Assembly (NCBI GenBank): GCA_947632275.1
Contig: CANROR010000002.1
Location: 1-39,716 of the forward strand
Length of the DNA: 39,716 bases
DNA from: an uncultured Bacilli bacterium
Lineage (GTDB): Bacteria; Bacillota_I; Bacilli_A; RF39; UBA660
Direction of reading: 5' to 3'
Shown here: one piece after another, positions 4,746-37,781 of the stretch
Position numbering within the stretch: the stretch's first letter is position 1
Layout: the number at the start of each line of letters is the position of its first letter
Translations under genes and position numbers: made by a program
The notes under the pieces: generated by a model
The model's input: only the letters and a program-made list of their open reading frames with translations
The model's database searches: none
Told to the model about the DNA's origin: nothing

Positions 4746-5678
4746 ATGAGTAAGAAAAAAAAGGAAGAAGTAGTAATTAATAATGAAGAATTAAAACCGA
4801 CAGTTTTATATACAATTAAAGAACGAAAGATTAATTTTTTAGGATTACTTTTATTATTTGCTTTATTTATTGCCGTTATTTATTTTTTACCAACGATTTC
4901 CGAAAAATATCAAGAATATAAAAGAGGGCAAACAAAGAATCCAGTAGTCATAAAACCTAGTGATAATCAAGAAAACGAAAGTAATGATTTAGAAGATATG
5001 GAACAAGCCGAAAAGAAATACGAATATAGTTCTAGTTTAAAAATTACAAAAGATTCTTTTACGATGGCGGATTTTAATTTTAGCAATAATACTTTAACTT
5101 TTAGTATAACTAATAATGAAAATAGTAACATTGATTTAACGGCCATGAATTATTATTTAAGTATATTTAATAGTACTAATAATTTAATAAAAAGAATTAA
5201 AGTTGCCGAAGATGTATTTAATAGTAAAGAAAAAAAGAATTATGCGTTTAATATTAATGCTAATGCGATAAGTTATTTTGTATTAGAAGAGATAAATCCC
5301 GAAGATTATCCGGAAATAACGTTGACGGGTAATAATGGTCAAGCATCAATTACCTGTCGAAATAATGAAACGACATTTCGATATGATTTTACTAATAAAG
5401 AACTTACGAATATTTTAGAAACAGTAACTATTGCTAATACGGCTACTAATTATCAAAGTGAACTTGCCAAATATCAAGTTCAAGTGGCAACATATGCCTC
5501 TTATACGGGGATTCAAAATAATATAACCGAAACCGATACGGGATTTACTTATAATTTATTTATAAATACAAGTACGGCCAATTTGAGAAATTTAAATGGC
5601 GTTAATTATTATGCTACTAAAACGGCGGCCAAAGTTATTAGTTTTGAAGTAGAAGCAAGGGGTTATACATGTAGTTAA
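4746..5678 (+). CDS. Hypothetical membrane-anchored extracytoplasmic protein (Asn/Thr-rich)
   Basis: Long ORF with a single TM (FLGLLLLFALFIAVIYFL) after a Lys/Glu-rich N-terminus. No recognisable motif. Start uncertain (4731/4737/4746); 4746 has the best SD spacing. Confidence 0.6.
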   Translation: MSKKKKEEVVINNEELKPTVLYTIKERKINFLGLLLLFALFIAVIYFLPTISEKYQEYKRGQTKNPVVIKPSDNQENESNDLEDMEQAEKKYEYSSSLKITKDSFTMADFNFSNNTLTFSITNNENSNIDLTAMNYYLSIFNSTNNLIKRIKVAEDVFNSKEKKNYAFNINANAISYFVLEEINPEDYPEITLTGNNGQASITCRNNETTFRYDFTNKELTNILETVTIANTATNYQSELAKYQVQVATYASYTGIQNNITETDTGFTYNLFINTSTANLRNLNGVNYYATKTAAKVISFEVEARGYTCS

Positions 5679-24877: not shown

Positions 24878-26491
24878 GTGATATATATTTTTGGTCATAA
24901 AAATCCCGACACAGATAGTGTTTGTTCCTCAATCGCTTTAGCGTATTTAAAAAATGAACTTGGGGAAAAATGTGTACCTAAAATTTTAGGTAATATTAAT
25001 AAAGAAACGAAATTTGTTTTAGATTATTTTAAAATAGATGTCCCTAGTTATTTAAATGATGTCAGGGTCCGGATTAAAAAAGTAAAATATGACAAAAAAG
25101 CTTTTATTTGGGAATATGCTTCGATTGATGAAGCTTTTAAATTAATGCAACAACATAATATCACAGCAATTCCTTTAGTTGATGAAGATAAAAAATTAAC
25201 CGGTTATGTTACCTTAAAAGAAATTGCTAAATATTTAATCCAAGGTGATAAAGAACATATTAATACGACATTAGACAATATTGTGGCTACTTTAGAAGCC
25301 AAGGTTCTAACAAAATTTGATGAAGTAATTGATGGCAATATCATGGTTGTCGGGATGCAATCTAAAGCTTTTTATGATAGTGTTAATTTAAAAAATGATG
25401 ACATTTTAATTGTCGGTGATCGGTACCGGATTTTAGAATATGCGATTGCTTCTAAAGTAAAACTTATTATTTTGCCTTTTAATAGTGGGATTAATGAAGA
25501 ATTATTAGCCAAAGCGAAAGCCAATAAAATAAATATTATTGAAACTAGTTTAGGTTCGTATTTAATTTCTAATAAAGTATTACTTGCCAATTACGTTAAA
25601 AGTATAAATACGAATCATAATCCGGTGACCGTTAATAATGAAGATTCTTTCACGGATTTTAAAACAATGATGCATAAAGTAAATCATACGAATTATCCCG
25701 TGGTTAATAATAAAGGGGAATGTTTAGGTCTTATTCGGTTGACGGGACCTAATACTTATGAAAAGCAAAAAGTTATTTTAGTCGATCATAATAATTTTGC
25801 CCAAAGTGTCGATGGGATTGAAGAAGCTGATATTGTCGAAATTATTGACCATCACAATTTGGGAGCGATTGGGACCAATATTCCGATTAACTTTCGGAGT
25901 AGACCCGTCGGTTGTACGGCAACGATGATTTATGATATGTTCACGGAAGCAAAAGTGGCGATTCCTAAAAATATCGCGGGTATTTTACTTTCGGCAATTC
26001 TTTCTGATACCTTACTTTTAACCGGCCCAACCACAACCGAAGATGATAAATATGCGGCCATCAAACTGGCCACTATAGCCAAGATTGATATTAATAAATA
26101 TGGTTATGAAATGTTAAAAGCGGCTTCGGCTTTAGATGATTTAACGGTTAAAGATATTATCTTAAGTGATTTTAAATCTTATAATGTCGATAATGCTAAT
26201 TTAGGTATTGGTCAAGTTATGACGATGAACTTTGAATATATTAAAGAAAAAATGCCCGAATTTTTAGCGGAAATGGAAGAAATGAGTAGTAAGTATCCGA
26301 CGCTTGTTTTATTTATTACTGATGTTATTCGGAAAGGTTCTTACATTTTATATAATAAAAGTACGGAAAGTATTGTGAAAGAAGCCTTTGGCTTAAAAGA
26401 TGTCTATGAAGGTATCTTTGTTCCGAAGATTGTTTCGCGGAAGAAAGACTTTTTACCAAGTATTTTAAGTGCAATGGAGAATGATTTATGA
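24878..26491 (+). CDS. ppaC: Family II (DHH) inorganic pyrophosphatase with CBS-DRTGG-CBS insert
   Basis: GHKNPDTDS, DHHN, DHHA2 C-terminal part, and an about 250-aa regulatory insert between DHH motifs. GTG start with GGGAAGTGG SD. Confidence 0.8.
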   Translation: MIYIFGHKNPDTDSVCSSIALAYLKNELGEKCVPKILGNINKETKFVLDYFKIDVPSYLNDVRVRIKKVKYDKKAFIWEYASIDEAFKLMQQHNITAIPLVDEDKKLTGYVTLKEIAKYLIQGDKEHINTTLDNIVATLEAKVLTKFDEVIDGNIMVVGMQSKAFYDSVNLKNDDILIVGDRYRILEYAIASKVKLIILPFNSGINEELLAKAKANKINIIETSLGSYLISNKVLLANYVKSINTNHNPVTVNNEDSFTDFKTMMHKVNHTNYPVVNNKGECLGLIRLTGPNTYEKQKVILVDHNNFAQSVDGIEEADIVEIIDHHNLGAIGTNIPINFRSRPVGCTATMIYDMFTEAKVAIPKNIAGILLSAILSDTLLLTGPTTTEDDKYAAIKLATIAKIDINKYGYEMLKAASALDDLTVKDIILSDFKSYNVDNANLGIGQVMTMNFEYIKEKMPEFLAEMEEMSSKYPTLVLFITDVIRKGSYILYNKSTESIVKEAFGLKDVYEGIFVPKIVSRKKDFLPSILSAMENDL

Positions 26492-27258
26492 AAGCCTTAA
26501 TAACGGGAGCCTCAAGTGGTATTGGCAAACAAATGGCTCTTTATCTCGCCAGTTTAGGTTATGAGTTAATTTTGGTAAGTCAAGATAACCAAAAACTAAA
26601 TGCGGTTAAGAAAGAAATTGCTTCGCCTGTTAAGACCATTTGCCTAGATTTAGTAAAAGAAGAAAATGTCTTTAATTTATACGAAAAGGTGAAGGCGGAA
26701 GATATTGATATTTTAATTAATAATGCCGGCTTTGGTCTTTTTGGCATGTTTGCCCAAACGGATTTAACGCGCGAACTGGAAATGATTGATTTAAATGTTA
26801 AGGCCTATCATATTTTAACTAAACTTTTTTTACAAGATTTTGTAAAAAAAGATGTTGGTTATATTTTAAATGTATGTAGTAGTGCCGGTTTTATGGCGGG
26901 ACCGAGAATGAGTACATATTATGCAACTAAGAATTATGTTACAAAACTTACAATGGCAATCAACGAAGAATTGCGAAAAGCCAAAAGTCATGTTCATATC
27001 AGTGCTTTGTGTCCGGGACCAGTTAATACCAATTTTAATAAAGTAGCCCATGGTGCTTTTGCCATTAAAGGTGTAAGTCCTAAATATGTAGCTCAATATG
27101 CTATCAATAAAATGTTTAAAAATAAAATGCTTATTGTGCCCACTTTAAAAATGAAATTAACTTTGTTTTTGACGCGCTTTGCGCCATATCGTCTTCAATT
27201 AATGGTAGCTTATCATATTCAATATCGGAAAGAAAATGGTCAAAAGAAAAATAAGTAG
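26488..27258 (+). CDS. Short-chain dehydrogenase/reductase (SDR)
   Basis: TGASSGIG cofactor motif, NNAG, YxxxK (YYATK). ATGA overlap with ppaC. Confidence 0.85.
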   Translation: MKALITGASSGIGKQMALYLASLGYELILVSQDNQKLNAVKKEIASPVKTICLDLVKEENVFNLYEKVKAEDIDILINNAGFGLFGMFAQTDLTRELEMIDLNVKAYHILTKLFLQDFVKKDVGYILNVCSSAGFMAGPRMSTYYATKNYVTKLTMAINEELRKAKSHVHISALCPGPVNTNFNKVAHGAFAIKGVSPKYVAQYAINKMFKNKMLIVPTLKMKLTLFLTRFAPYRLQLMVAYHIQYRKENGQKKNK

Positions 27259-27268
27259 GAATTTTTTC

Positions 27269-27526
27269 CTACTTATTTAATTCTTGGTTTAAAGTATTAA
27301 GAGCTTCATTGATTTTCTTTTTAGTTTCACTTTCTAGTTGGTAATAACCTAAATCATAGGCCAGAGTAAAGATATCTTTGGCCTGTTTACTAATACTTGC
27401 AAACATTTGATAAAGTTTTTGGTATAAACAGTCATTGCTAGCTTCATTTAAAGCATAAGTCATATTGACAGCCATATTCTTTTCCATTTCTAAAATATCC
27501 ATCAAAAATTTTTTATCATTCATCAT
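27269..27526 (-). CDS. CotF-like (ferritin-like) spore-coat-family protein
   Basis: DKKFLMDILEMEKNMAVNMTYALNEASN pattern typical of Coat_F domains. Start uncertain (27535 GTG / 27526 / 27523 ATG). Confidence 0.6.
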   Translation of the reverse strand: MMNDKKFLMDILEMEKNMAVNMTYALNEASNDCLYQKLYQMFASISKQAKDIFTLAYDLGYYQLESETKKKINEALNTLNQELNK

Positions 27527-27731
27527 TATCCCCACTTTCTAAAATTGAAACTAAGCTTTCACATATTTCATAATGCATATTAGCAATGGTCGAAAATAAT
27601 TCTTGCATTTGGCTATCTTCAATTTCTTTTAAGTAGTAATTTATTTTATCTTTAGCAATGATATTCCAGTTAAAAATATCTTTAATGTAAGATACATCTT
27701 TAGTTGATAACATCTTTGGTACTTTTTTCAT
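27516..27731 (-). CDS. Small helical protein, upstream partner of the CotF-like gene
   Basis: 71-aa ORF with GGGAGGAAAG SD. Overlaps the next gene. No motif recognised. Confidence 0.5.
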   Translation of the reverse strand: MKKVPKMLSTKDVSYIKDIFNWNIIAKDKINYYLKEIEDSQMQELFSTIANMHYEICESLVSILESGDNDE

Positions 27732-29634: not shown

Positions 29635-31749
29635 ATGTTTGACTTTTTTAATATCGAAATAAATAAATTATTTAAACAAAGTGAAAAGGAAATGCTTGCT
29701 TTAAACCATCCTTATGTCGGGACCGAACATTTATTACTAGCCTTACTTAAACTTTCGGAAAGTATTCAAAAAATTGCAATAGAATACGATTTAACTTACG
29801 CAAGTTTTAAAAATGAACTATTAAGAGTCGTGGGTTCGGCAACAAAGAAAAGTAGTTATATTTTATATACGCCGCTTTTAAAAAGAGTTATAAAAAATGC
29901 GACTAGTATTGCCATGAATGATAACGAAGAATTAACTTATAAACATTTTTTAGCCGCTTTAATTGAAGAAGGGGAAGGAATTGCTATTCGCGTTTTAATT
30001 GGTATGGGAATAGATATCGAAGCTTTATATGAAGATATCATGGATTCACCGAGTACATTAGAAAAATTAGAAATTTTAACTATTGGTAAAAACTTAAATG
30101 AATTAGTTAATAAAGAAGAAAATTTAATTGGTCGCGAAAAAGAATTAAATAATATGCTAGAAACTTTAATGCGAAAAGATAAAAATAATCCGTTATTAAT
30201 TGGTCCGGCCGGAGTGGGGAAAACGGCTATCGTCGAACAACTAGCGCGCCTAATCGAAAAAGGCGATATTCCCACCCGGTTAAAAAACAAAAAAATTATT
30301 ATGTTAGAGATGGGGTCACTTGTCGCCGGAACTAAATATCGGGGCGAATTTGAAGAACGCCTAACTAAAATTATTAAAGAACTAGAACAAAATCCGAATT
30401 TAATTTTATTTATTGACGAAATTCATGCTATGGTTAATGCCGGTGGGGCCGAAGGAGCCATAAATGCCGCGGATATTTTAAAACCTTATTTAGCCCGGGG
30501 AACGATTAAATGCATTGGGGCTACTACTACCCAAGAATATAATAAATTCATTGCTCGCGATAAGGCTTTAGCGCGCCGTTTTGAAATCATCAATGTTCAA
30601 GAACCAAGTGAAGAAGAAACAATTAATATTTTAAGTAAAGTTAAAGGCAATTATGAAAAACATTATAATTTAAAGATAAAAAATGAAGCGATTAAAAAAA
30701 TTGTTCAATTAACGAACAAATATATTTTTGATAAAAGAAATCCCGACAAATCATTAGATGTTTTAGATTCGGTTTGTTCTTATTTAACAATTAAAAGTGA
30801 ACATGTAAAAAAATCTAATAATTATGAACAAAAATTACAAGAATTAAAACGCGAAAAAGAAAAATTAATTCAAGCAAATAATTTCGCGGAAGCAATTAAA
30901 ATTCATGAAGAAGAAAAGAAGTTGCAAGAAAAAATTAATAATATGGATACCAAGAAAAAACTAAATATCAGTGAAAAAGATATTTATTATGTAATTGGTA
31001 AAAAAGTAAATATTCCTTTACCAGAAGAAAAAAAGAATTTACTTGGTAATTTAGAAAAAGTTTTAGGCCAAAAAATATTAGGCCAAGAACAAGCAATAAG
31101 TAAAATTTTACAAACCTTGAAAAATAAATTTTATGATAATAATTTGCCAATTTCCTTTATTTTTAATGGCGATATTGGGGTGGGTAAAACGTATACGGCC
31201 AATCTCATGGGCCAAAATTTGAAGATGACATCATTAAATTTAGATTTCGCCGATTATGCGAATAATGCCACCATAACCCGGTTAATTGGTTCTAGTGCCG
31301 GTTTTGTAGGTTATGATGATGAACCGATCTTTAATGAAATAAAATATAATCCTTATAGTCTAATTGTGATTGAAAATTATGCTTTAGGTTGTATGGAAAT
31401 TAAGAAAATGTTGGACCAAATAATTGAAAAAGGCTTAATTAAAAATGCGAAGGGAGAAGACATATCTTTTAAAAATACGATAATCATTATTAATACAAAC
31501 TTAAAGAAAATAAATAAAGTAGGTTTTGAATCAAATTTAAGTAATAATTATGATGATTTAAATATTAATAAATTATTAGATAAAGTAAATGAGATAATTG
31601 AATTTAAAAATTTAAATGAAGAAATGGTTTTAAAATATTTAGAATTAAATAATTATCCCAAAACTTTAATCAAAGATCTTAATTATGCAAAAGGTGGTTT
31701 TAAAACCATTATTAAAGCTTTAAAAAATAAAAAAGAATTAGTCAAGTAA
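29635..31749 (+). CDS. clpC: ClpC-like class I AAA+ chaperone with degenerate second nucleotide-binding domain
   Basis: Two Clp_N repeats. D1 has GPAGVGKT / LFIDEIH / ARRFE, followed by a short coiled coil. D2 has GDIGVGKT but VIENY in place of the DE Walker B. A VGF loop is present. 704 aa. Confidence 0.75.
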   Translation: MFDFFNIEINKLFKQSEKEMLALNHPYVGTEHLLLALLKLSESIQKIAIEYDLTYASFKNELLRVVGSATKKSSYILYTPLLKRVIKNATSIAMNDNEELTYKHFLAALIEEGEGIAIRVLIGMGIDIEALYEDIMDSPSTLEKLEILTIGKNLNELVNKEENLIGREKELNNMLETLMRKDKNNPLLIGPAGVGKTAIVEQLARLIEKGDIPTRLKNKKIIMLEMGSLVAGTKYRGEFEERLTKIIKELEQNPNLILFIDEIHAMVNAGGAEGAINAADILKPYLARGTIKCIGATTTQEYNKFIARDKALARRFEIINVQEPSEEETINILSKVKGNYEKHYNLKIKNEAIKKIVQLTNKYIFDKRNPDKSLDVLDSVCSYLTIKSEHVKKSNNYEQKLQELKREKEKLIQANNFAEAIKIHEEEKKLQEKINNMDTKKKLNISEKDIYYVIGKKVNIPLPEEKKNLLGNLEKVLGQKILGQEQAISKILQTLKNKFYDNNLPISFIFNGDIGVGKTYTANLMGQNLKMTSLNLDFADYANNATITRLIGSSAGFVGYDDEPIFNEIKYNPYSLIVIENYALGCMEIKKMLDQIIEKGLIKNAKGEDISFKNTIIIINTNLKKINKVGFESNLSNNYDDLNINKLLDKVNEIIEFKNLNEEMVLKYLELNNYPKTLIKDLNYAKGGFKTIIKALKNKKELVK

Positions 31750-31755
31750 AAAGAC

Positions 31756-31784
31756 TTGTCAAAAGAAATAATTTTTCTTATAAT
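31756..31784 (+). promoter_or_regulatory. Near-consensus promoter TTGTCA-17-TATAAT (candidate antitoxin sRNA promoter)
   Basis: Read directly from sequence. Lies 7 nt after the clpC-like stop, with no protein ORF downstream. Confidence 0.6.
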
Positions 31785-31790
31785 AAAAAT

Positions 31791-31860
31791 GTAAGTGTTA
31801 CCTACCAAGGGGAGCACCTACGTGATTGTAAATGCTCCTTACTTGTGAGGAGTATTTTTA
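31791..31860 (+). ncRNA. Candidate about 70-nt antisense sRNA (type I antitoxin)
   Basis: Bounded by the promoter above and the hairpin TGCTCCT / AGGAGTA + T5 (31833-31860). Fully complementary to the 3' end of the minus-strand mini-ORF mRNA. Confidence 0.4.
31797..31818. repeat. Inverted-repeat arm L (GTTACCTACCAAGGGGAGCACC)
   Basis: Complementary to 31998-32018 (7 bp + internal loop + about 8-10 bp). Confidence 0.7.
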
Positions 31861-31922
31861 ATTGTTAAGTTTTTGCAAACTAACAACAAGACTAAAAGTC
31901 TTAGAAAATAAATTTCAGTCAT
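31839..31922 (-). CDS. Candidate type I toxin, 27 aa MTEIYFLRLLVLLLVCKNLTIKNTPHK
   Basis: AAGGAGGG SD, 5-nt spacer, ATG. Hydrophobic helix plus basic tail. Not in the supplied ORF track (too short). Confidence 0.45.
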   Translation of the reverse strand: MTEIYFLRLLVLLLVCKNLTIKNTPHK

Positions 31923-31997
31923 GTAATCCCTCCTTAACTAACCTGTTTAAACCAAGATGATAAGGAAAAGAGTAACAACCAAAACATCCCCATAAAA

Positions 31998-32018
31998 GGT
32001 GCTCCTCTAAAAGGTAAC
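31998..32018. repeat. Inverted-repeat arm R (GGTGCTCCTCTAAAAGGTAAC)
   Basis: Reverse complement GTTACCTTTTAGAGGAGCACC matches arm L. Sits immediately downstream of a minus-strand TATAAT (32027-32032). Confidence 0.7.
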
Positions 32019-32114
32019 GGTTAACTATTATATTGCTTAAAAAAATAAAGGTAAGCGATTCGACAAAACAAGACAAAAGTTTTAAAAAAAGTTAAGATAA
32101 AGAGAAGGTGAAAG

Positions 32115-32534
32115 ATGAAAAAAGTAATAATTATACTTGTAATTGTGATGATTCTAGGTGGTTGCTTAGCAAATAAAAAAGAAGAAACAAAGGAGAATAG
32201 GGAAACGATGAAAGTAAAAATAAATGATACGAATGTAACTATAGATTGGGAAGACAATGAAACAGTTAGCGAATTATTAAAGCATTTGCCTTTAAGCGGA
32301 GAAATGCAAGAATTAAATGGTAATGAAAAATATCTTTATTTAGATTATAGTTTGCCTACTGCTAGTTTTAATCCCCAAGAAATTAAGACGGGCGATGTTT
32401 ATCTTTATGGTAATAATTGTTTAGTTATTTTTTATCAAGATTTTGCCACCAGTTATAGTTATACCAAAATTGGTCATATTTCCGATTTACCAAATATAGG
32501 TCAAGAAAATATTTCTTTAACAATTGAAAAATAA
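32115..32534 (+). CDS. Lipoprotein, cyclophilin-like-fold family (putative)
   Basis: Lipobox ILGGC. Mature part VKINDTNVTIDWEDNETVSELLKHLPL...NEKY resembles cyclophilin-like DUF proteins as I remember them. Confidence 0.55.
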   Translation: MKKVIIILVIVMILGGCLANKKEETKENRETMKVKINDTNVTIDWEDNETVSELLKHLPLSGEMQELNGNEKYLYLDYSLPTASFNPQEIKTGDVYLYGNNCLVIFYQDFATSYSYTKIGHISDLPNIGQENISLTIEK

Positions 32535-32598
32535 TTTTTTTCAATAATGTAACTTAGTTGTAACTTTGGCTATAATATAATTATCTTGAGGTGGAAAA

Positions 32599-33273
32599 AT
32601 GGAAATTTTAAAAGTCGAAAATTTAACCAAAATCTATGGCAAAGATACAACTAAGGTTGTGGCTTTAGATCATGTTTCTTTTAGTGTGGAAAAGGGGGAA
32701 TTTGTCGCCATTGTTGGTGCTTCCGGCAGTGGTAAATCGACGCTTTTACATTTAATCGGGGGTGTTGATCGGCCAACCAGTGGCAAAGTTTTGGTCGATG
32801 GCGAAGATATTTTTAATTTTGATGAAGACAAACTAGCAATTTTTCGCCGGCGGCAAGTGGGATTAATTTATCAATTTTATAATTTAATTCCCATTCTTAA
32901 TGTCGAAGAAAACATAACTTTACCGCTTGCTTTAGATAATCGGCAAGTAGATCAAGAAAAATTACAAGAATTATTACTTTTATTAGGCTTAAATAATCGC
33001 AAAAATCATTTGCCAAATGAACTATCCGGCGGCCAACAACAACGAACGAGTATTGGTCGCGCGCTTATTACCAATCCCGCCCTTATTTTAGCCGATGAAC
33101 CAACCGGGAATTTAGATACCAAAGCGAGCGAAGAAATTGTCGCATTACTCAAAAAAACGAATAAAGAATTAAAACAAACGATAGTTATGATTACCCATAA
33201 CCTAGAAATCGCAGCGGCAGCCGACCGGATTATTAAACTGGAAGATGGCAAAATCGTAGATGGAGATAAATAA
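32599..33273 (+). CDS. ABC transporter ATP-binding protein (MacB/FtsE-type)
   Basis: Walker A GASGSGKST, Q-loop, signature LSGGQQQR, Walker B ILADEPTGNLD, H-loop ITHN. Confidence 0.9.
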   Translation: MEILKVENLTKIYGKDTTKVVALDHVSFSVEKGEFVAIVGASGSGKSTLLHLIGGVDRPTSGKVLVDGEDIFNFDEDKLAIFRRRQVGLIYQFYNLIPILNVEENITLPLALDNRQVDQEKLQELLLLLGLNNRKNHLPNELSGGQQQRTSIGRALITNPALILADEPTGNLDTKASEEIVALLKKTNKELKQTIVMITHNLEIAAAADRIIKLEDGKIVDGDK

Positions 33274-35858
33274 TGAATATTCTCCATAAGTTAACATTTA
33301 AAAATTTAAAGTTAAATAAAAAAAGAACAATTGTCACCATTATTGGCATAATTTTGTCGGTGGCTTTAATCACGGCCGTTGCCAGTATGTATTCAAGTTT
33401 AATTGCTTCAATGATTAAATATGAAAAGTATGAAAAAGGAAATTTTCATGTAGCTTTTTATGAAGTACCTCAAGCGGATTTAAAAACATTTAAAAGTAAT
33501 CGGGAAATTGAAGATTTTTACTTGACGGAAGATCTGGGTTATGCCAAGTATGAAAAAATTGCTAATCCGGGGAAACCTTATCTTAATATAAAAGGTTTTA
33601 ATGCTAAATCTTTGGAAAATCTAGCAATTAAACTAGTGGAAGGAAGGCTTCCAGAAAATAGTGAGGAAATTGTTATTCCGACTCATTTAAAAACCAATGG
33701 TCGCGTTGATTTAAAAATTGGGGATACGCTTACATTAGAAGTTGGCAAAAGAATTGATAAACAAGGTAATATTTTAAATCAAAGTAATCCTTATCAAGAA
33801 GAAAATTTGGAACAAATAATTGATAGGGTTATGAAAACTTTTAAAATTGTCGGGATTATTGAAAGGCCGGCCAATAATGTCGAAGCTTATTCGGCGCCCG
33901 GTTATACTTTAATTACCTATAGTGATTTAAGTAAGGCCAGTCTCGTTGATGTCTATACCCGGTTAACGAAAAAAGAAACTAAAGACTATATTACTTATAC
34001 CGCGGGTATTTTAGAAATTGATCCCGACATTTTCCAAAATTATGTTGATATTAATGCCAAATATGAAAGTCATTTGCAAGCTGTAGAGGCCGTAAATAAA
34101 GCTAAATATCAAATTAATATTAATCAATATTTAGTCGATTTAGAAACTAATCCCTTTCATAATTCTTCACTTGGGGAAATGGGAATGGTTGTTCTAATTG
34201 TTTGCGTAATAATTGTCGTTACTTCGGTTTTTTGTATCAAAAATAGTTTTGATATATCAATTACCGAGAAAACTAAACAATATGGCATGCTTCGAAGTAT
34301 TGGCGCAACTAAAAAACAAATTCGCAAGAATGTCTTTTTTGAAGCAACGATTCTCGGTTTAATTGGGATTCCGATTGGCCTATTATGTGGATTACTTGCT
34401 TCTTACATTTTAGTCTTTGTTTGTAATTATTTTTTAGCCGGTTCGCTAGAAGAAAATTTAGAAATTATTTTTGCTTTTTCTTACCTTGCTATAATAGTTG
34501 CCATTATTCTCGGGATGCTTACCATTTATCTTTCGGCGTTAAGGAGTGCGCGTCGGGCCGCGAAAGTAAGTCCAATTGATTCAATCAGAAATAGTGCCGA
34601 TTTAAAAATCAAAAGGAAAAAAGTTAAAAGTAATAAATTAGTTACTAAATTATTTGGTATCGGTGGCGATCTATCTTATAAAAATATCAAAAGAAATAAG
34701 AAAAAATATCGCACAACGACAATTTCGATTATTACTTCGGTGACTGTTTTTATTGCTTTATCGTCTTTTATGAATTTAGCCTTTAAATCCGTCGAAGGCG
34801 AGTTAAACTTGCAAGATTATAATTTATCTTTAGGTCTTACATTTGGGGCTAAAACTAAAGATAAAATAAAAGAAATTGAGATGCAAGAAAATATCAACGA
34901 TTACATAATTGAACGGATGGATAGCATAAGAATTGTAAGTCCCAAGTATAATTCGCAATTTTTAGAAAAAATAAATTTTACGCCGGAAGATGAAGACGAA
35001 AGTTATATTTCAATTATGGCTATCGGCGATATTCCTTATCAAAAATACCTAAAAAAATTAGGCTTGGATTATGAAGAAGTAAAAAATAAAGGTATTCTTT
35101 TAGATAAAGTTACGATTAATGTAAGTGATGGAAAAGAAAATATGCATACTTATCGCTTAAGAAAATTTAATTATCAAGCCGGTGATGAAGTAAAGGCTAG
35201 TGATGGAACTTTTCAAATTAATTTGGCTTTAATAACCGACAAGTTACCAATGGGAATAAGTGAAAGCCGCTCAAACAGTATCATTATTGTTAGTGATGCC
35301 GTCTTTGAACAATATTTTGCCGATGGATATACTTATATATTTATTGATTCTAGTGATGCTGCCAAAACTCAAGATGCTATTGATAAAATAATGGCTGGTG
35401 AAGAATATTCTTTAGAGAATATTGAAGAAAATGCGAAAATTATGCAAAACTTATTTACCTTAATTGGTATTTTCCTATATGGCTTTATTATTGTTATCTC
35501 TTTAATTGGCATCACGAATATTTTTAATACGATTACAACGAGTATGGAACTAAGAAAAGGGGAATTTGCCATGCTAAAATCTATTGGCATGACTACGAAA
35601 GAATTTAATCATATGATTCGTTTAGAAAGTATTTTCATTGGTCTTAAATCTTTGCTTTGGGGTATTCCTTTGGGCATAGTTTTATCCGTATTTATTTATC
35701 ACACAGGCGATATGGATTATGCTTATGAAGTGCCAATTTTGGCAATCATTCTAGCAATTCTAGTAGTCTTCCTGTTAATAACTTTAATTATGAAATATTC
35801 GCTTCATAAAATAAAAGGCCAAAATACCATTGAAACCATTCGAAATGAAAATATTTAA
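33273..35858 (+). CDS. ABC transporter permease, tandem FtsX/MacB-type (2 x [TM-ectodomain-3TM])
   Basis: 861 aa, 8 predicted TM, two large extracytoplasmic domains. 1-nt TAATG overlap with the ATPase gene. Confidence 0.8.
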   Translation: MNILHKLTFKNLKLNKKRTIVTIIGIILSVALITAVASMYSSLIASMIKYEKYEKGNFHVAFYEVPQADLKTFKSNREIEDFYLTEDLGYAKYEKIANPGKPYLNIKGFNAKSLENLAIKLVEGRLPENSEEIVIPTHLKTNGRVDLKIGDTLTLEVGKRIDKQGNILNQSNPYQEENLEQIIDRVMKTFKIVGIIERPANNVEAYSAPGYTLITYSDLSKASLVDVYTRLTKKETKDYITYTAGILEIDPDIFQNYVDINAKYESHLQAVEAVNKAKYQININQYLVDLETNPFHNSSLGEMGMVVLIVCVIIVVTSVFCIKNSFDISITEKTKQYGMLRSIGATKKQIRKNVFFEATILGLIGIPIGLLCGLLASYILVFVCNYFLAGSLEENLEIIFAFSYLAIIVAIILGMLTIYLSALRSARRAAKVSPIDSIRNSADLKIKRKKVKSNKLVTKLFGIGGDLSYKNIKRNKKKYRTTTISIITSVTVFIALSSFMNLAFKSVEGELNLQDYNLSLGLTFGAKTKDKIKEIEMQENINDYIIERMDSIRIVSPKYNSQFLEKINFTPEDEDESYISIMAIGDIPYQKYLKKLGLDYEEVKNKGILLDKVTINVSDGKENMHTYRLRKFNYQAGDEVKASDGTFQINLALITDKLPMGISESRSNSIIIVSDAVFEQYFADGYTYIFIDSSDAAKTQDAIDKIMAGEEYSLENIEENAKIMQNLFTLIGIFLYGFIIVISLIGITNIFNTITTSMELRKGEFAMLKSIGMTTKEFNHMIRLESIFIGLKSLLWGIPLGIVLSVFIYHTGDMDYAYEVPILAIILAILVVFLLITLIMKYSLHKIKGQNTIETIRNENI

Positions 35859-35938
35859 AAAACTTCAAATTATTTGAAGTTTTTTGGTAATTGACTATTT
35901 AAATTCCTAATGTTAGGATAAATAAAGGGAAAGAATTT

Positions 35939-36592
35939 ATGAAAATACTTTTAATCGAAGATAATGAAATAATTGTTAAAGGCTTAAAATATGCTTTAGA
36001 AAAAGATGGTTATCAAGTAATGGTGGCAAATAATTTAAAAATGGCACAAGATTATTTAAAAAAAGAAGAATTAAATTTAGTTATTTTAGATTTAACGTTG
36101 CCCGATGGAAATGGTTTTACTTTTTATGAAAAATTTATTAAAGCTAATAATCTTGCCACTATTATATTGACGGCTAAGGACGAAGAAGATGATATTGTTT
36201 ATGGCCTTAATATGGGAGCCGAAGATTATTTAACCAAACCTTTTAGTACCAAAGAATTATTAGCACGGATTAATAAAATATTTTTAAGGCAAAAAAGAAA
36301 TAGTATTATTAAAGTTAAAGATATCAGTTTTGATTTAGAAAAAATGGTTGTTAAGCGAGATGAAGAAATAATAGAACTAACCGCTTTAGAATTAAAATTA
36401 CTGCAACTATTATTTTTAAATTTAAATAAAGTGGTAACTCGTAGTGCCATTTTAGATACAATTTGGGATATCACAGGTAATGATGTGGATAATCATACTA
36501 TTACTGTTTATTTTAAAAGAATAAGAGAAAAATTAGGAACTGATATTATTAAAACTATTAAAGGAATAGGATATAGAATCGATAATGAATAA
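35939..36592 (+). CDS. OmpR-family response regulator
   Basis: Receiver domain (ILLIEDN, LVILDLTLPDG, K in TAK), plus Trans_reg_C wHTH (TVYFKRIREKL, GIGYRI). Confidence 0.9.
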   Translation: MKILLIEDNEIIVKGLKYALEKDGYQVMVANNLKMAQDYLKKEELNLVILDLTLPDGNGFTFYEKFIKANNLATIILTAKDEEDDIVYGLNMGAEDYLTKPFSTKELLARINKIFLRQKRNSIIKVKDISFDLEKMVVKRDEEIIELTALELKLLQLLFLNLNKVVTRSAILDTIWDITGNDVDNHTITVYFKRIREKLGTDIIKTIKGIGYRIDNE

Positions 36593-37781
36593 AGTTTATT
36601 TAAAAAAATTTTTACTTAAAGTCTTTTTGATAATACTAATATTTTGTAGTATTTCTTTAGGGTTAATAACTTTGACCCAAAACTTAATTAATGCAAATAT
36701 TAATCAAAAAATGAGTGCTATTGTGGCTAAAATTGAAGAAAAATATCCCCTTATTACGGAAGAAGAAATCATGGATATTATTAATAGTGAAGAAGTAAAT
36801 AATAATTTATTTTTAAAATATGGCATAACTTTAGAAGATAATTTAGTAAAAACTAATGCTAATGTTTATCAAGTTTTTAGTATTTTAAACATTATTAATT
36901 TGTTATTACTAGGTAGTAGTTTAATTTATTTATTTTTACGATATGAAAAAAGAATAAATAGAGAAATAAAAAAGATAACTAAATACTTACATGCTTTAAA
37001 TAAGCAAATATTTAATTTAGAATTAGATAGTTATACCGAAGATGAATTATCAATTTTAAAAAATGAAATTTATAAAATAACGATTATGTTAAAAGAAAAA
37101 AATCTTAATTTAGGCCAAGATAAAAAACATTTAAAAGAATCTTTAGAAGATATATCACATCAATTAAAAACCCCTTTAACAAGTATGACAATTATGTTAG
37201 ATAATTTATTAGATGAAGAAAAAGATAAACAAAAACAAGAATTTTTACATGATATTAAAAGAGAAGTAAATAATTTAAATTTTTTAGTCCAATATTTATT
37301 AAAATTAGCCCGATTTGATGCGCAAGCAATAACTTTAAAAAAAGAAAAGATAAATGTCAACAAGTTATTAAAAGAAGTAAAACAAAATCTGTCAGCTTTA
37401 AGTGATTTAAAAAATATTAAAATCAATATTAAAGGTAATCAAGATGTTTCTTTTCAGGGAGATTTCTATTGGGAAAAAGAAGCTTTAACTAATATTTTAA
37501 AAAATGCATTAGATTATTCTAATATAAATCAAAAAGTTAATATAACTTATACGGAAAATAAAGTTTATACTTTAGTTACTTTGGAAAACTATAAGGTCAT
37601 GGCTAAAGAAGATGTGGCGCATGTTTTTGAAAGGTTTTATAAAGGAAGTAATTCTTCTATCGAAAGTGCCGGGATTGGCCTAGCCTTAGCCAAAACTATT
37701 ATTGAAAAAGATAATGGTTCAATCAAAGTCGAAACGACTGATAAAAGTACTAAATTTATGATAAAATACTTTAAATTATAA
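36585..37781 (+). CDS. Sensor histidine kinase (2 TM, HisKA + HATPase_c)
   Basis: H-box ISHQLKTPLTSM, N-box NILKNALDYS, F/G boxes FERFYKG and GIGLALAK. 8-nt overlap with the RR gene. Confidence 0.9.
   Translation: MNKVYLKKFLLKVFLIILIFCSISLGLITLTQNLINANINQKMSAIVAKIEEKYPLITEEEIMDIINSEEVNNNLFLKYGITLEDNLVKTNANVYQVFSILNIINLLLLGSSLIYLFLRYEKRINREIKKITKYLHALNKQIFNLELDSYTEDELSILKNEIYKITIMLKEKNLNLGQDKKHLKESLEDISHQLKTPLTSMTIMLDNLLDEEKDKQKQEFLHDIKREVNNLNFLVQYLLKLARFDAQAITLKKEKINVNKLLKEVKQNLSALSDLKNIKINIKGNQDVSFQGDFYWEKEALTNILKNALDYSNINQKVNITYTENKVYTLVTLENYKVMAKEDVAHVFERFYKGSNSSIESAGIGLALAKTIIEKDNGSIKVETTDKSTKFMIKYFKL

Follow-up and report, generated by a model that had tools for sequence, protein, structure and literature searches.

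Introduction

What is encoded in the 365-bp spacer that separates a clpC-like gene from a lipoprotein gene in an uncultured Bacilli bacterium of the UBA660 lineage (contig CANROR010000002.1 of assembly GCA_947632275.1)? The spacer lies in a stretch of 39,716 nucleotides, referred to here as the window (29% GC), whose source lineage belongs to the uncultured spore-forming Bacilli, SpoVS being encoded within the window itself. An earlier note, prepared from the letters of the sequence alone, had claimed that this spacer holds a module resembling the 3'-overlapping type I toxin-antitoxin systems, and we likewise find convergent units with a 3' overlap in it. As judged from its signals and their conservation, the spacer holds a conserved, autonomous cis-antisense module of ~330 bp comprising two predicted convergent, 3'-overlapping transcription units (hereafter the cassette), and the predicted layout is closest to that of the 3'-overlapping type I toxin-antitoxin systems of Firmicutes. 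We put the probability that the cassette is a type I toxin-antitoxin module at roughly 0.45, both the synthesis of its peptide and the toxicity of that peptide being putative. The in silico support covers signals, conservation, strand-specific structure, and the fixed geometry of tandem Spo0A boxes upstream of one of the promoters; these boxes were absent from the earlier note and were found in the follow-up.

Results

Signals of the two transcription units

All sequence features named in the earlier note lie where it placed them and surpass chance expectation. The features on which the argument depends are listed below (L011, L012, and L030 are homologous contigs described in the next section).

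29635-31749, plus strand: ClpC-like AAA+ gene, left flank of the cassette spacer
31756-31784, plus strand: promoter of the small RNA (sRNA), TTGTCA-17-TATAAT, matching 11 of 12 consensus positions; top promoter-like site of a 1-kb scan
31790-31862, plus strand: predicted ~72-nt antisense sRNA, candidate antitoxin, delimited by promoter and terminator
31830-31857, plus strand: hairpin of an intrinsic terminator (terminator scan), 12-bp stem, loop CTTG, with T5 at 31855-31859
32075-32059, minus strand: tandem Spo0A 0A boxes TGTCTTG-TTT-TGTCGAA, 26 nt upstream of the -10
about 32055-32049, minus strand: weak -35-like element CTTACC/TTACCT (promoter span 32027-32055)
32032-32027, minus strand: -10 TATAAT, identical in the window, L011, L012, and L030
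32021-31785, minus strand: predicted ~235-nt structured RNA, candidate toxin mRNA, conserved from just inside the -10 to about 31785
31935-31928, minus strand: Shine-Dalgarno sequence (SD) AAGGAGGG, with a 5-nt gap to the ATG at 31922; identical in L011
31922-31839, minus strand: 27-codon open reading frame (ORF) plus stop (31841-31839), MTEIYFLRLLVLLLVCKNLTIKNTPHK, hydrophobic with a Lys-rich tail
32115-32534, plus strand: Cyclophilin-like-2 lipoprotein gene, right flank of the cassette spacer

The plus-strand promoter and the hairpin followed by T5, both described in the earlier note, are present. The stop codon of clpC lies at 31749 and the -35 of the sRNA promoter begins 6 nt later, with no terminator between them; the sRNA terminator is the sole terminator-like site in 31400-32400, where shuffled sequences give 0.4. 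Since clpC has no terminator of its own, transcriptional read-through from clpC would stop at the sRNA terminator, and the 3' untranslated region (UTR) of the clpC mRNA would then also carry the sRNA sequence, itself antisense to the minus-strand RNA. Two G-U pairs of the terminator stem on the plus strand become C.A mismatches on the minus strand, which also has no U-tract at this site; as predicted from these features, the terminator is specific to the plus strand. In its predicted fold (-25.1 kcal/mol), the sRNA has a 5' stem-loop, with ACCAA in the loop, and then the terminator; over its full length it complements the final 72 nt of the predicted minus-strand RNA without a mismatch. The antisense RNA of about 70 nt proposed earlier stands as a prediction in its size and in its position opposite the end of the ORF and the 3' UTR, with one amendment: besides the closing-helix 3' arm (see below) and the hairpin of the 3' UTR, it covers the stop and ~6 sense codons before it, where the earlier note had counted seven. 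By its predicted extent, it is a cis-encoded antisense RNA gene overlapping the minus-strand RNA.

On the minus strand, the SD, the 5-nt gap, the ATG at 31922, the 27-codon ORF, and its stop at 31839 were found as described in the earlier note, as was the TATAAT at 32027-32032, which is invariant in all four sequences that cover it. This promoter was not listed by the promoter scan because of its weak -35, and the plus-strand promoter is by far the closer of the two to consensus, as expected if an antitoxin is made in excess. The -35 region of the minus promoter occurs in the variants CTTACC, CTTGCT, and CTTGCA, its spacer is ~73% conserved, and conservation falls off just past the -10. In the contig L028, the plus promoter reads TTGAAA-17-TATAAT, so that the hexamers and the 17-nt spacing are kept around a spacer of unrelated sequence. 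Promoter hexamers and spacing retained while the spacers diverged indicate that both strands are probably transcribed.

Conservation of the cassette

Five short contigs hold the cassette or parts of it. L011 (lipoprotein 76% identical at the protein level, with 352 nt of upstream sequence available) contains the cassette at nearly full length. L012 and L030, in which the lipoprotein is 62% identical, cover the right-hand ~60 nt together with the minus promoter, L028 (ClpC 70% identical) extends over the plus promoter and ~29 nt at the start of the sRNA, and L029 (ClpC 66% identical) contains only a minus-type promoter. The corresponding accessions are ERZ27249167 for L011, ERZ27249446 and ERZ27249530 for L012 and L030, SRR11585416 for L028, and ERR14656722 for L029. 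The closest ClpC homolog of the window is no more than 70% identical. In other lipoprotein homologs (L013, L014, and, beyond the part just mentioned, L030), the upstream DNA is too short or the context differs.

Across 31762-32031, the window and L011 agree at 253 of 270 nt (94%), compared with 67-73% identity in unconstrained intergenic bins. In the adjacent lipoprotein coding sequence, identity is 83% at the DNA level and 77% at third positions, with a synonymous change in 18% of the codons specifying the same amino acid. The differences from L011 fall into two patches (31824-31826 and 31937-31953), which correspond to a short 3' UTR segment and to the loop of the SD hairpin, plus five isolated changes. 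The plus promoter is identical in L011 from 31762 onward, and so is the sRNA except at 31824-31826, the linker between its 5' stem-loop and the terminator. A similar picture emerges from L028, where the stretch from the -10 into the sRNA 5' end (31779-31817) is identical in 38 of 39 nt although the third positions of the ClpC gene are only 60% identical. The loops are saturated with changes while the stems are unchanged, which argues for long-term purifying selection and not for recent transfer. The earlier note had made its proposal dependent on conservation of the inverted arms and of the SD in relatives; the 3' arm is identical in L011 and L028, and the SD is identical in L011.

In L029 (2224-2279), the 0A boxes and CGCTTGCA lie directly after clpC on the clpC strand, with ~81% identity over 42 nt when aligned by hand. 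In L029, the cassette may accordingly have the opposite orientation to that in the window and L028, although the contig ends before the -10; the arrangement also suggests that the 0A boxes travel with the cassette, which would move as a unit. In relatives with ClpC 64-65% identical (L002-L007), the element is absent after clpC, and tRNAs, terminators, or an ATP-binding cassette (ABC) gene are found instead. The region following clpC looks like a hotspot of small-gene turnover.

Spo0A boxes upstream of the minus-strand promoter

The core 0A box has the form TGTCGAA (TGNCGAA), and 0A boxes preferably occur in tandem, phased at ~10 bp. Upstream of the minus promoter, the downstream box TGTCGAA is a perfect core 0A box and a second, degenerate box lies one helical turn (10 bp) upstream. 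The distance of 26 nt between box and -10 is exact in the window, in L011 (where the box reads TGGCGAA), and in L012; the lipoprotein start codon, in contrast, lies at a variable distance of 36 to 50 nt from the boxes. The boxes are part of a 26-nt motif, TTCGACAAAACAAGACAAAAGTTTTA, located at 32059-32084 and conserved in L011, L012, and L030, the 0A boxes being read on its other strand. The core motif TGTCGAA, and spoIIAA as a target of Spo0A, have been described previously (PMC3485338).

A scan with the central 19-mer of this motif led to two related metagenome-assembled genomes (MAGs) of rabbit-gut 'uncultured Bacilli' (L021 and L025), in which an identical 26-mer (L021, 2299-2324; L025, 1508-1533) lies in the intergenic promoter region between dacF and spoIIAA-sigF, in the same orientation and 27 nt from the -10 of the spoIIAA-sigF operon. 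Across the window, TGTCGAA is enriched, with 11 copies compared with 3.1 expected. The minus promoter has the predicted composition of a Spo0A-type promoter, namely a core box in tandem arrangement upstream of or overlapping the -35, and it is probably switched on by phosphorylated Spo0A (Spo0A~P) at the onset of sporulation. It resembles early promoters activated by Spo0A (spoIIA, spoIIG, and spoIIE type) in combining a perfect core box with a degenerate one just upstream of the -35, and it differs from them in that the product would be a small RNA or mini-ORF, not a sporulation protein, and in that Spo0A control is here deduced from sequence only.

Fold of the minus-strand RNA

Both strands fold much more stably than shuffled sequences (z-scores of -5.6 for plus and -4.6 for minus). 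The elements of the minus-strand fold are the following.

31997-32018, minus strand: 5' arm of the closing helix P1 (GUUACCU...GAGGAGCACCU), conserved in L011, L012, and L030
31797-31819, minus strand: 3' arm of P1 (AGGUGCUCCCCUUGGUAGGUAAC), to which the sRNA 5' stem-loop would also bind; without change in L011 and L028
31961-31991, minus strand: upstream strand predicted by folding to sequester SD and AUG, composed of an anti-SD and the G/U-rich 31991-31975
31937-31960, minus strand: variable terminal loop of the SD hairpin, with ~9 L011 substitutions at 31937-31953 and unchanged flanking stems

The complementarity between the 5' end of the minus RNA and its 3' region, to which the earlier note had drawn attention, proved far stronger than chance. 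The inverted arms lie at 31797-31818 and 31998-32018, and in the consensus fold they form a bipartite helix of about 19 bp (32018-32012 with 31803-31797, and 32008-31997 with 31819-31808). At 29% GC, such GC-rich arms are unusual: a single copy of GGAGCACC, and one of its complement, is present in 39.7 kb. When the first 30 nt of the putative minus RNA are paired with 40 nt near its 3' end, the duplex energy is -29.2 kcal/mol, compared with -8.7 +/- 3.0 kcal/mol in shuffles, none of which (0/1000) reached the observed value. The sole substitution in P1, G32001A on the plus strand (L011 and L012), converts a C-G pair into U-G on the minus strand and would produce an A.C mismatch on the plus strand.

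Between the two arms, a long irregular hairpin (P2/P3) pairs 31991-31975 with 31922-31904, a segment comprising the AUG and first codons, and an anti-SD (UCUUU.CCUUA, 31971-31961) with the SD region at 31936-31927, in both consensus and single-sequence folds. As 10 of its 27 pairs are G-U, this hairpin can form on the minus strand only. L012 shows a C>U change within the sequestering strand, at a position that would pair with G. Two further hairpins lie within the 27-codon ORF, and the 3' region forms either a local hairpin (31838-31811) or P1. The SD has a probability of being unpaired of ~0.02 in the full-length RNA, in nascent fragments, and in 3'-truncated forms that mimic loss of the 3' end or its capture by the sRNA. 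The earlier note had attributed the inertness of the mRNA to 5'-3' closure; in every length variant modeled, it is the local anti-SD hairpin, not the closing helix, that is predicted to silence the ribosome-binding site, and the closing helix more likely stabilizes the RNA and presents the sRNA target. Sequestration of SD and AUG, predicted here in all modeled forms, is a hallmark of type I toxin mRNAs.

For the strand test, we used the minimum free energy fold of the window sequence alone, which is hence not fitted to L011. On the minus-strand fold, L011 differs at 13 of 84 unpaired compared with 4 of 152 paired positions (p=4.5e-4), and on the plus-strand fold at 11 of 108 unpaired compared with 6 of 128 paired positions (p=0.13). 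With RNAalifold, the minus strand has the lower energy, -60.1 kcal/mol compared with -48.3 kcal/mol on the plus strand.

The sRNA would compete for the same 3' site, as had been proposed. Its 5' arm is a copy of the minus-RNA 5' arm, not its complement, and its duplex with the 3' arm reaches -61.9 kcal/mol compared with -29.2 for the intramolecular 5'-3' duplex, so that it should be able to displace the 5' arm.

The 27-codon mini-ORF

In the window, GGAGG-N4-9-ATG occurs at eight sites, six of them at real gene starts (shuffle mean 1.6). The encoded peptide carries charges in its tail (K17, K22, H26, and K27) and its best 19-residue Kyte-Doolittle window scores 1.68. Type I toxins are generally shorter than 60 aa, with a hydrophobic N-terminus containing a potential transmembrane segment and a Lys-rich or otherwise charged C-terminus (PMC6563280), and the predicted peptide has this size, hydrophobicity, and charged C-terminus. 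The ORF is intact in L011, its sole full-length homolog, with L19I as the only change (31868 A>T on the plus strand). Among unpaired positions, 1 of 23 changed within the ORF compared with 12 of 43 in the 5' UTR (p=0.025), a hint that the ORF may bear extra constraint. Overall, the evidence that the ORF is coding is equivocal.

Two other small ORFs were considered and rejected. One, upstream on the minus strand (31993-31934, 19 aa, MGMFWLLLFSLSSWFKQVS, SD GAGGAG), could have formed a coupled pair of the mok/hok kind, as its stop overlaps the SD of the 27-codon ORF and its own SD lies within the closing-helix 5' arm; it is not conserved, the ATG being AAG in L011, with a gained stop, and the frame being shifted in L012. 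The other, a plus-strand ORF of 32 aa (31862-31960), lies beyond the terminator, and its C-terminus is not conserved in L011.

Searches for known families and further copies

Rfam at gathering thresholds, applied to the whole window, placed no family on the cassette on either strand. At E<=10 on 31650-32200, only noise was obtained, all of it on the plus strand with the minus strand without a match; the best of it was PyrR (E=2.2; 20.4 bits against a gathering threshold of 54) and L10_leader (15.5 bits against 44), look-alikes caused by the terminator. The tRNA/tmRNA scan found none at the cassette, and cassette DNA had no relative in the plasmid and phage collections. Pattern searches were similarly unproductive: GGTRCTCCNCTAAAAGGTAACGG gave 0 matches in GTDB genomes and JGI metagenomes, GTTACCTACCAAGGGGAGCAC gave 0 in metagenomes and viral contigs (IMG/VR), CTCCNCTAAAAGGTAACGG gave 0 in viral contigs (IMG/VR), and a concatenated-peptide search of viral contigs returned nothing. 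The absence of pattern matches indicates that neither the GTDB representatives nor the JGI set includes the species of the window. The pattern GTTACCTN{4,8}GRGGAGCACC gave three matches in viral contigs, and the one inspected (L008, 61% GC, without a partner arm) looked like chance.

Discussion

Proposed mechanism

In the model that we favor, a weak sigma-A-type minus promoter behind tandem Spo0A boxes would produce a ~235-nt RNA encoding the 27-codon hydrophobic peptide with a Lys-rich tail. This RNA would be translationally inert, its SD and AUG being held in a local G-U-rich hairpin (31991-31961 with 31936-31904), while the bipartite ~19-bp helix would close the 5' and 3' ends and also shield the 5' end. 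The near-consensus plus promoter would yield the ~72-nt sRNA ending at the canonical terminator. First contact would probably be made by the ACCAA loop of the sRNA with the complementary UUGGU in an internal loop of the closing helix, followed by displacement of the 5' arm and formation of a long duplex leading to cleavage, presumably by RNase III, and degradation, in the manner of RatA or SR4 and not by a direct block of the ribosome-binding site. A narrower form of the model, in which a toxin-antitoxin-like or dual-function RNA is wired to Spo0A so that a membrane-active peptide would be permitted only when sporulation begins and otherwise be checked by the constitutive antisense RNA, seems to us possible but rather unlikely. 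To our knowledge, no earlier type I system is under direct Spo0A control.

Comparison with known type I systems

The txpA/RatA, bsrG/SR4, and yonT/SR6 systems have a convergent, 3'-overlapping layout, and their antitoxins act mainly by triggering duplex cleavage (PMC6562991). The cassette resembles these and bsrE/SR5 of B. subtilis in its predicted convergent RNAs paired at their 3' ends, in its small hydrophobic peptide, and in an SD that is partly or fully sequestered (PMC6562991). It is without sequence relationship to them (no Pfam or NCBIfam toxin, no RatA/SR4 or other Rfam match), its sRNA is much shorter (~72 nt) and lies wholly inside the overlap, and it is non-prophage, with predicted Spo0A boxes and ends closed by a long-distance helix. 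Compared with the TxpA/BsrG type, the convergent 3' pairing is therefore shared, and sequence membership and prophage location are not: the neighboring genes are not those of a prophage, and the DNA has no match in phage and plasmid collections.

The hok/sok and aapA/isoA systems share with the cassette an mRNA closed by pairing of its extreme 5' end with its 3' region, as well as an SD buried by an upstream anti-SD. In those systems, however, the antisense RNA hits the 5' translation-initiation region, whereas the cassette sRNA covers the 3' end, and 3' trimming activates the mRNA, whereas the SD of the cassette is not exposed upon in silico removal of the 3' arm. There is also no Hok/Gef or AapA homology, and those systems are proteobacterial or epsilonproteobacterial, while the cassette is from Bacilli. 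What the cassette has in common with the hok/aapA type is thus the modeled 5'-3' interaction, without the 5' targeting or the peptide homology.

The C. difficile pairs CD2517.1/RCd8, CD2907.1/RCd9, and CD0956.2/RCd10 are likewise convergent overlapping genes; their toxins, hydrophobic at the N-terminus and Lys-rich at the C-terminus, had gone unannotated by gene callers (PMC6563280). Those toxins have 30-56 aa, are mostly associated with prophages or CRISPR, are linked to sigma-B or stress, and show no sequence similarity to the cassette, which is chromosomal, single-copy, and apparently Spo0A-linked. In RNA size, a close parallel is the pAD1 par locus (fst RNA I/RNA II), with a toxin mRNA of ~210 nt and a convergent antisense RNA of ~65 nt, very close to the predicted ~235 and ~72 nt. 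The par RNAs share a bidirectional terminator and pair through 5' direct repeats, while the cassette terminator is predicted for the plus strand only; the peptide gave no match to the Fst family (PF13955), and we do not assign the cassette to Fst/par.

Weighing of the readings

Several observations weigh against a toxin-antitoxin module. Homologs are few, all of them fragments from low-coverage assemblies, and in being single-copy and outside a prophage the cassette differs from most type I systems of Firmicutes. The earlier note had not recognized the peptide as a member of any named family, and our searches agree: there was no match in Pfam and NCBIfam at E<=10, none by tblastn in plasmid and phage collections, and none by phmmer, with the ORF and a 5-residue in-frame extension as query, among 1.84 billion representative proteins. 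The uninterrupted hydrophobic run spans only 13 residues and contains Arg8, and T-rich DNA gives Leu/Phe-rich ORFs by chance. Relative to the single homolog L011, the ORF has 0 synonymous changes and one conservative non-synonymous change; ~4.7 synonymous changes would be expected if the peptide alone were constrained (P ~0.006), so the constraint acts on the RNA, and the 'SD' could be merely the purine strand of a helix. In the models, the SD stays buried even when the 3' end or the sRNA-bound part is removed, leaving no evident route to translation. That the upstream mini-ORF is not conserved shows that SD-ATG-ORF look-alikes arise at this very place. The terminator scan gave no canonical terminator for the minus RNA, and among the available homologs there are no compensatory double substitutions, so the helices are consistent with the data, not proven.

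Some of these points also support a reading in which the minus transcript would be a non-coding structured RNA induced by Spo0A and carrying C/U-rich anti-SD-like motifs, the ORF being fortuitous and the sRNA acting as a cis-antisense controller or sponge. Constraint at the nucleotide level, which includes all 28 third-codon positions of the ORF, speaks for it, as do substitutions that avoid the minus-strand helices while loops vary freely, an 'SD' that is permanently paired, a neighboring SD-ATG mini-ORF without conservation, and a 27-aa peptide without homologs. However, AAGGAGGG followed by a 5-nt gap, ATG, and 27 open codons is an optimal start, with a chance of a few percent by our own estimate at 29% GC; six of the eight GGAGG-N-ATG sites of the window are real gene starts, unpaired positions are more conserved in the ORF than in the UTR (p=0.025), and neither strand belongs to an Rfam family. 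On balance, we hold this reading to be unlikely, though a serious contender. If the ORF is translated, it might instead specify a non-toxic small membrane or sporulation peptide whose level is tuned by the cis-antisense RNA. Such a role would suit a Spo0A-box promoter geometry common to the spoIIAA promoters of related MAGs, a chromosomal, single-copy locus that in the window, L028, and L029 alike follows clpC in synteny, and the shortness of the hydrophobic stretch; yet the coding evidence is as lacking as for the toxin, and heavy occlusion of SD and AUG, when the antisense promoter is also by far the stronger one, is seen more typically with harmful products (PMC6562991), which leaves this role improbable.

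The plus strand could carry a ~325-nt leader of a lipoprotein-ABC-two-component operon with 31830-31859 as a regulated attenuator, given that promoter, terminator, and downstream gene share one strand, that an antiterminator candidate exists (GGAGCA at 31811-31816 paired with UGCUCC at 31833-31838), that alternative pairings overlap the 5' half of the terminator, that weak look-alike matches to PyrR and L10 leaders were obtained, and that in the window, L011, and L012 the element precedes the lipoprotein gene, which in L012 has scant room for a promoter of its own. We consider a leader very improbable: the Rfam matches are within noise (E>2) and identify no known cis-regulatory family, the lipoprotein gene lies 255 nt past the terminator, and two A.C mismatches interrupt the putative antiterminator on the plus strand, where the L011 substitutions ignore the fold (p=0.13) and break the long-range helix. 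The conserved minus -10 with its 0A boxes at fixed spacing points to opposite transcription, the cassette is apparently flipped relative to clpC in L029, and relatives carry the ABC operon without the element or the lipoprotein (L007). A trivial origin, with the hairpin as the clpC terminator only, promoters as chance AT-rich matches, and the ORF as noise, could appeal to the abundance of promoter-like hexamers at 29% GC (8 found compared with 5.2 expected) and to clpC having no other terminator; it would have to account for 270 nt under strong purifying selection, hexamers kept across diverged spacers, and a long-range helix matched by 0/1000 shuffles, and the chance that we allow it is slight. 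The slightest is that of a miniature inverted-repeat transposable or Correia-like element whose similarity reflects recent spread and not function. Imperfect 22-nt terminal inverted repeats ~180 nt apart, an intergenic location, a possible flip in L029, and conservation above that of neighboring genes would fit such an element, but it is single-copy in the 39.7-kb window and absent from the other related loci compared, the genome, metagenome, and viral scans gave no matches, and no target-site duplication flanks the arms; moreover, conservation and function reach past the repeats into both promoters, the same post-clpC position is occupied where ClpC is only 66-70% identical, and saturated loops beside invariant stems speak for long-term selection. 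Even taken together, these last three readings are improbable.

Significance

If the peptide is made and toxic, it would define a new family of orphan type I toxins in spore-forming gut Bacilli of a clade about which little is known, with expression of a type I toxin tied to the Spo0A developmental switch, and would bear on the purpose of chromosomal type I systems, for which mother-cell lysis, sibling killing, and commitment to sporulation are candidates. Should the Spo0A-wired form of the model hold, the new family would be one of uncultured low-GC spore-forming gut Bacilli. If non-coding, the RNA would be a new one, conserved, structured, and linked to sporulation, with an antisense partner of its own. 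In both cases, the 365-bp gap would contain two unannotated genes under selection stronger than that on the adjacent protein gene, a case showing that such modules escape gene callers and Rfam.

Genomic neighborhood and other observations

The neighbors of the cassette encode the ClpC-like ATPase, SpoVS, a cation-efflux protein, the lipoprotein, ABC/FtsX proteins, and a two-component system. In the relative L006 (ClpC 64% identical), two opposite-strand tRNA genes appear, by eye, after clpC (5140-5300) in place of the element, and in L007 (5085-7998), the ABC ATPase gene follows clpC directly, without the lipoprotein gene and without the element. An unannotated 71-aa ORF (27519-27731, minus strand), with a strong SD (GGGAGG) and a 6-nt gap to its ATG, sits between a 256-aa ORF (26488-27258) and the cation-efflux gene; its Pfam matches are sub-threshold only (DUF6572 and DUF2096_N).

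The genes at 32115-37781 encode the lipoprotein, an ABC ATPase, an 861-aa FtsX/MacB permease, an OmpR-type response regulator, and a histidine kinase, and by resemblance form a Bce-like module for peptide sensing and detoxification. The ABC ATPase is 87-89% identical over a very large set of Bacilli MAGs, that is, across the whole clade, and this uniformity makes it useless for ranking relatives. The spacer between the lipoprotein and ABC ATPase genes (32535-32598) is ~95% identical to L011 773-836 and contains TTGTAA...TATAAT; this conserved promoter-like pair indicates that the ABC/FtsX genes probably have their own promoter, independent of the lipoprotein gene.

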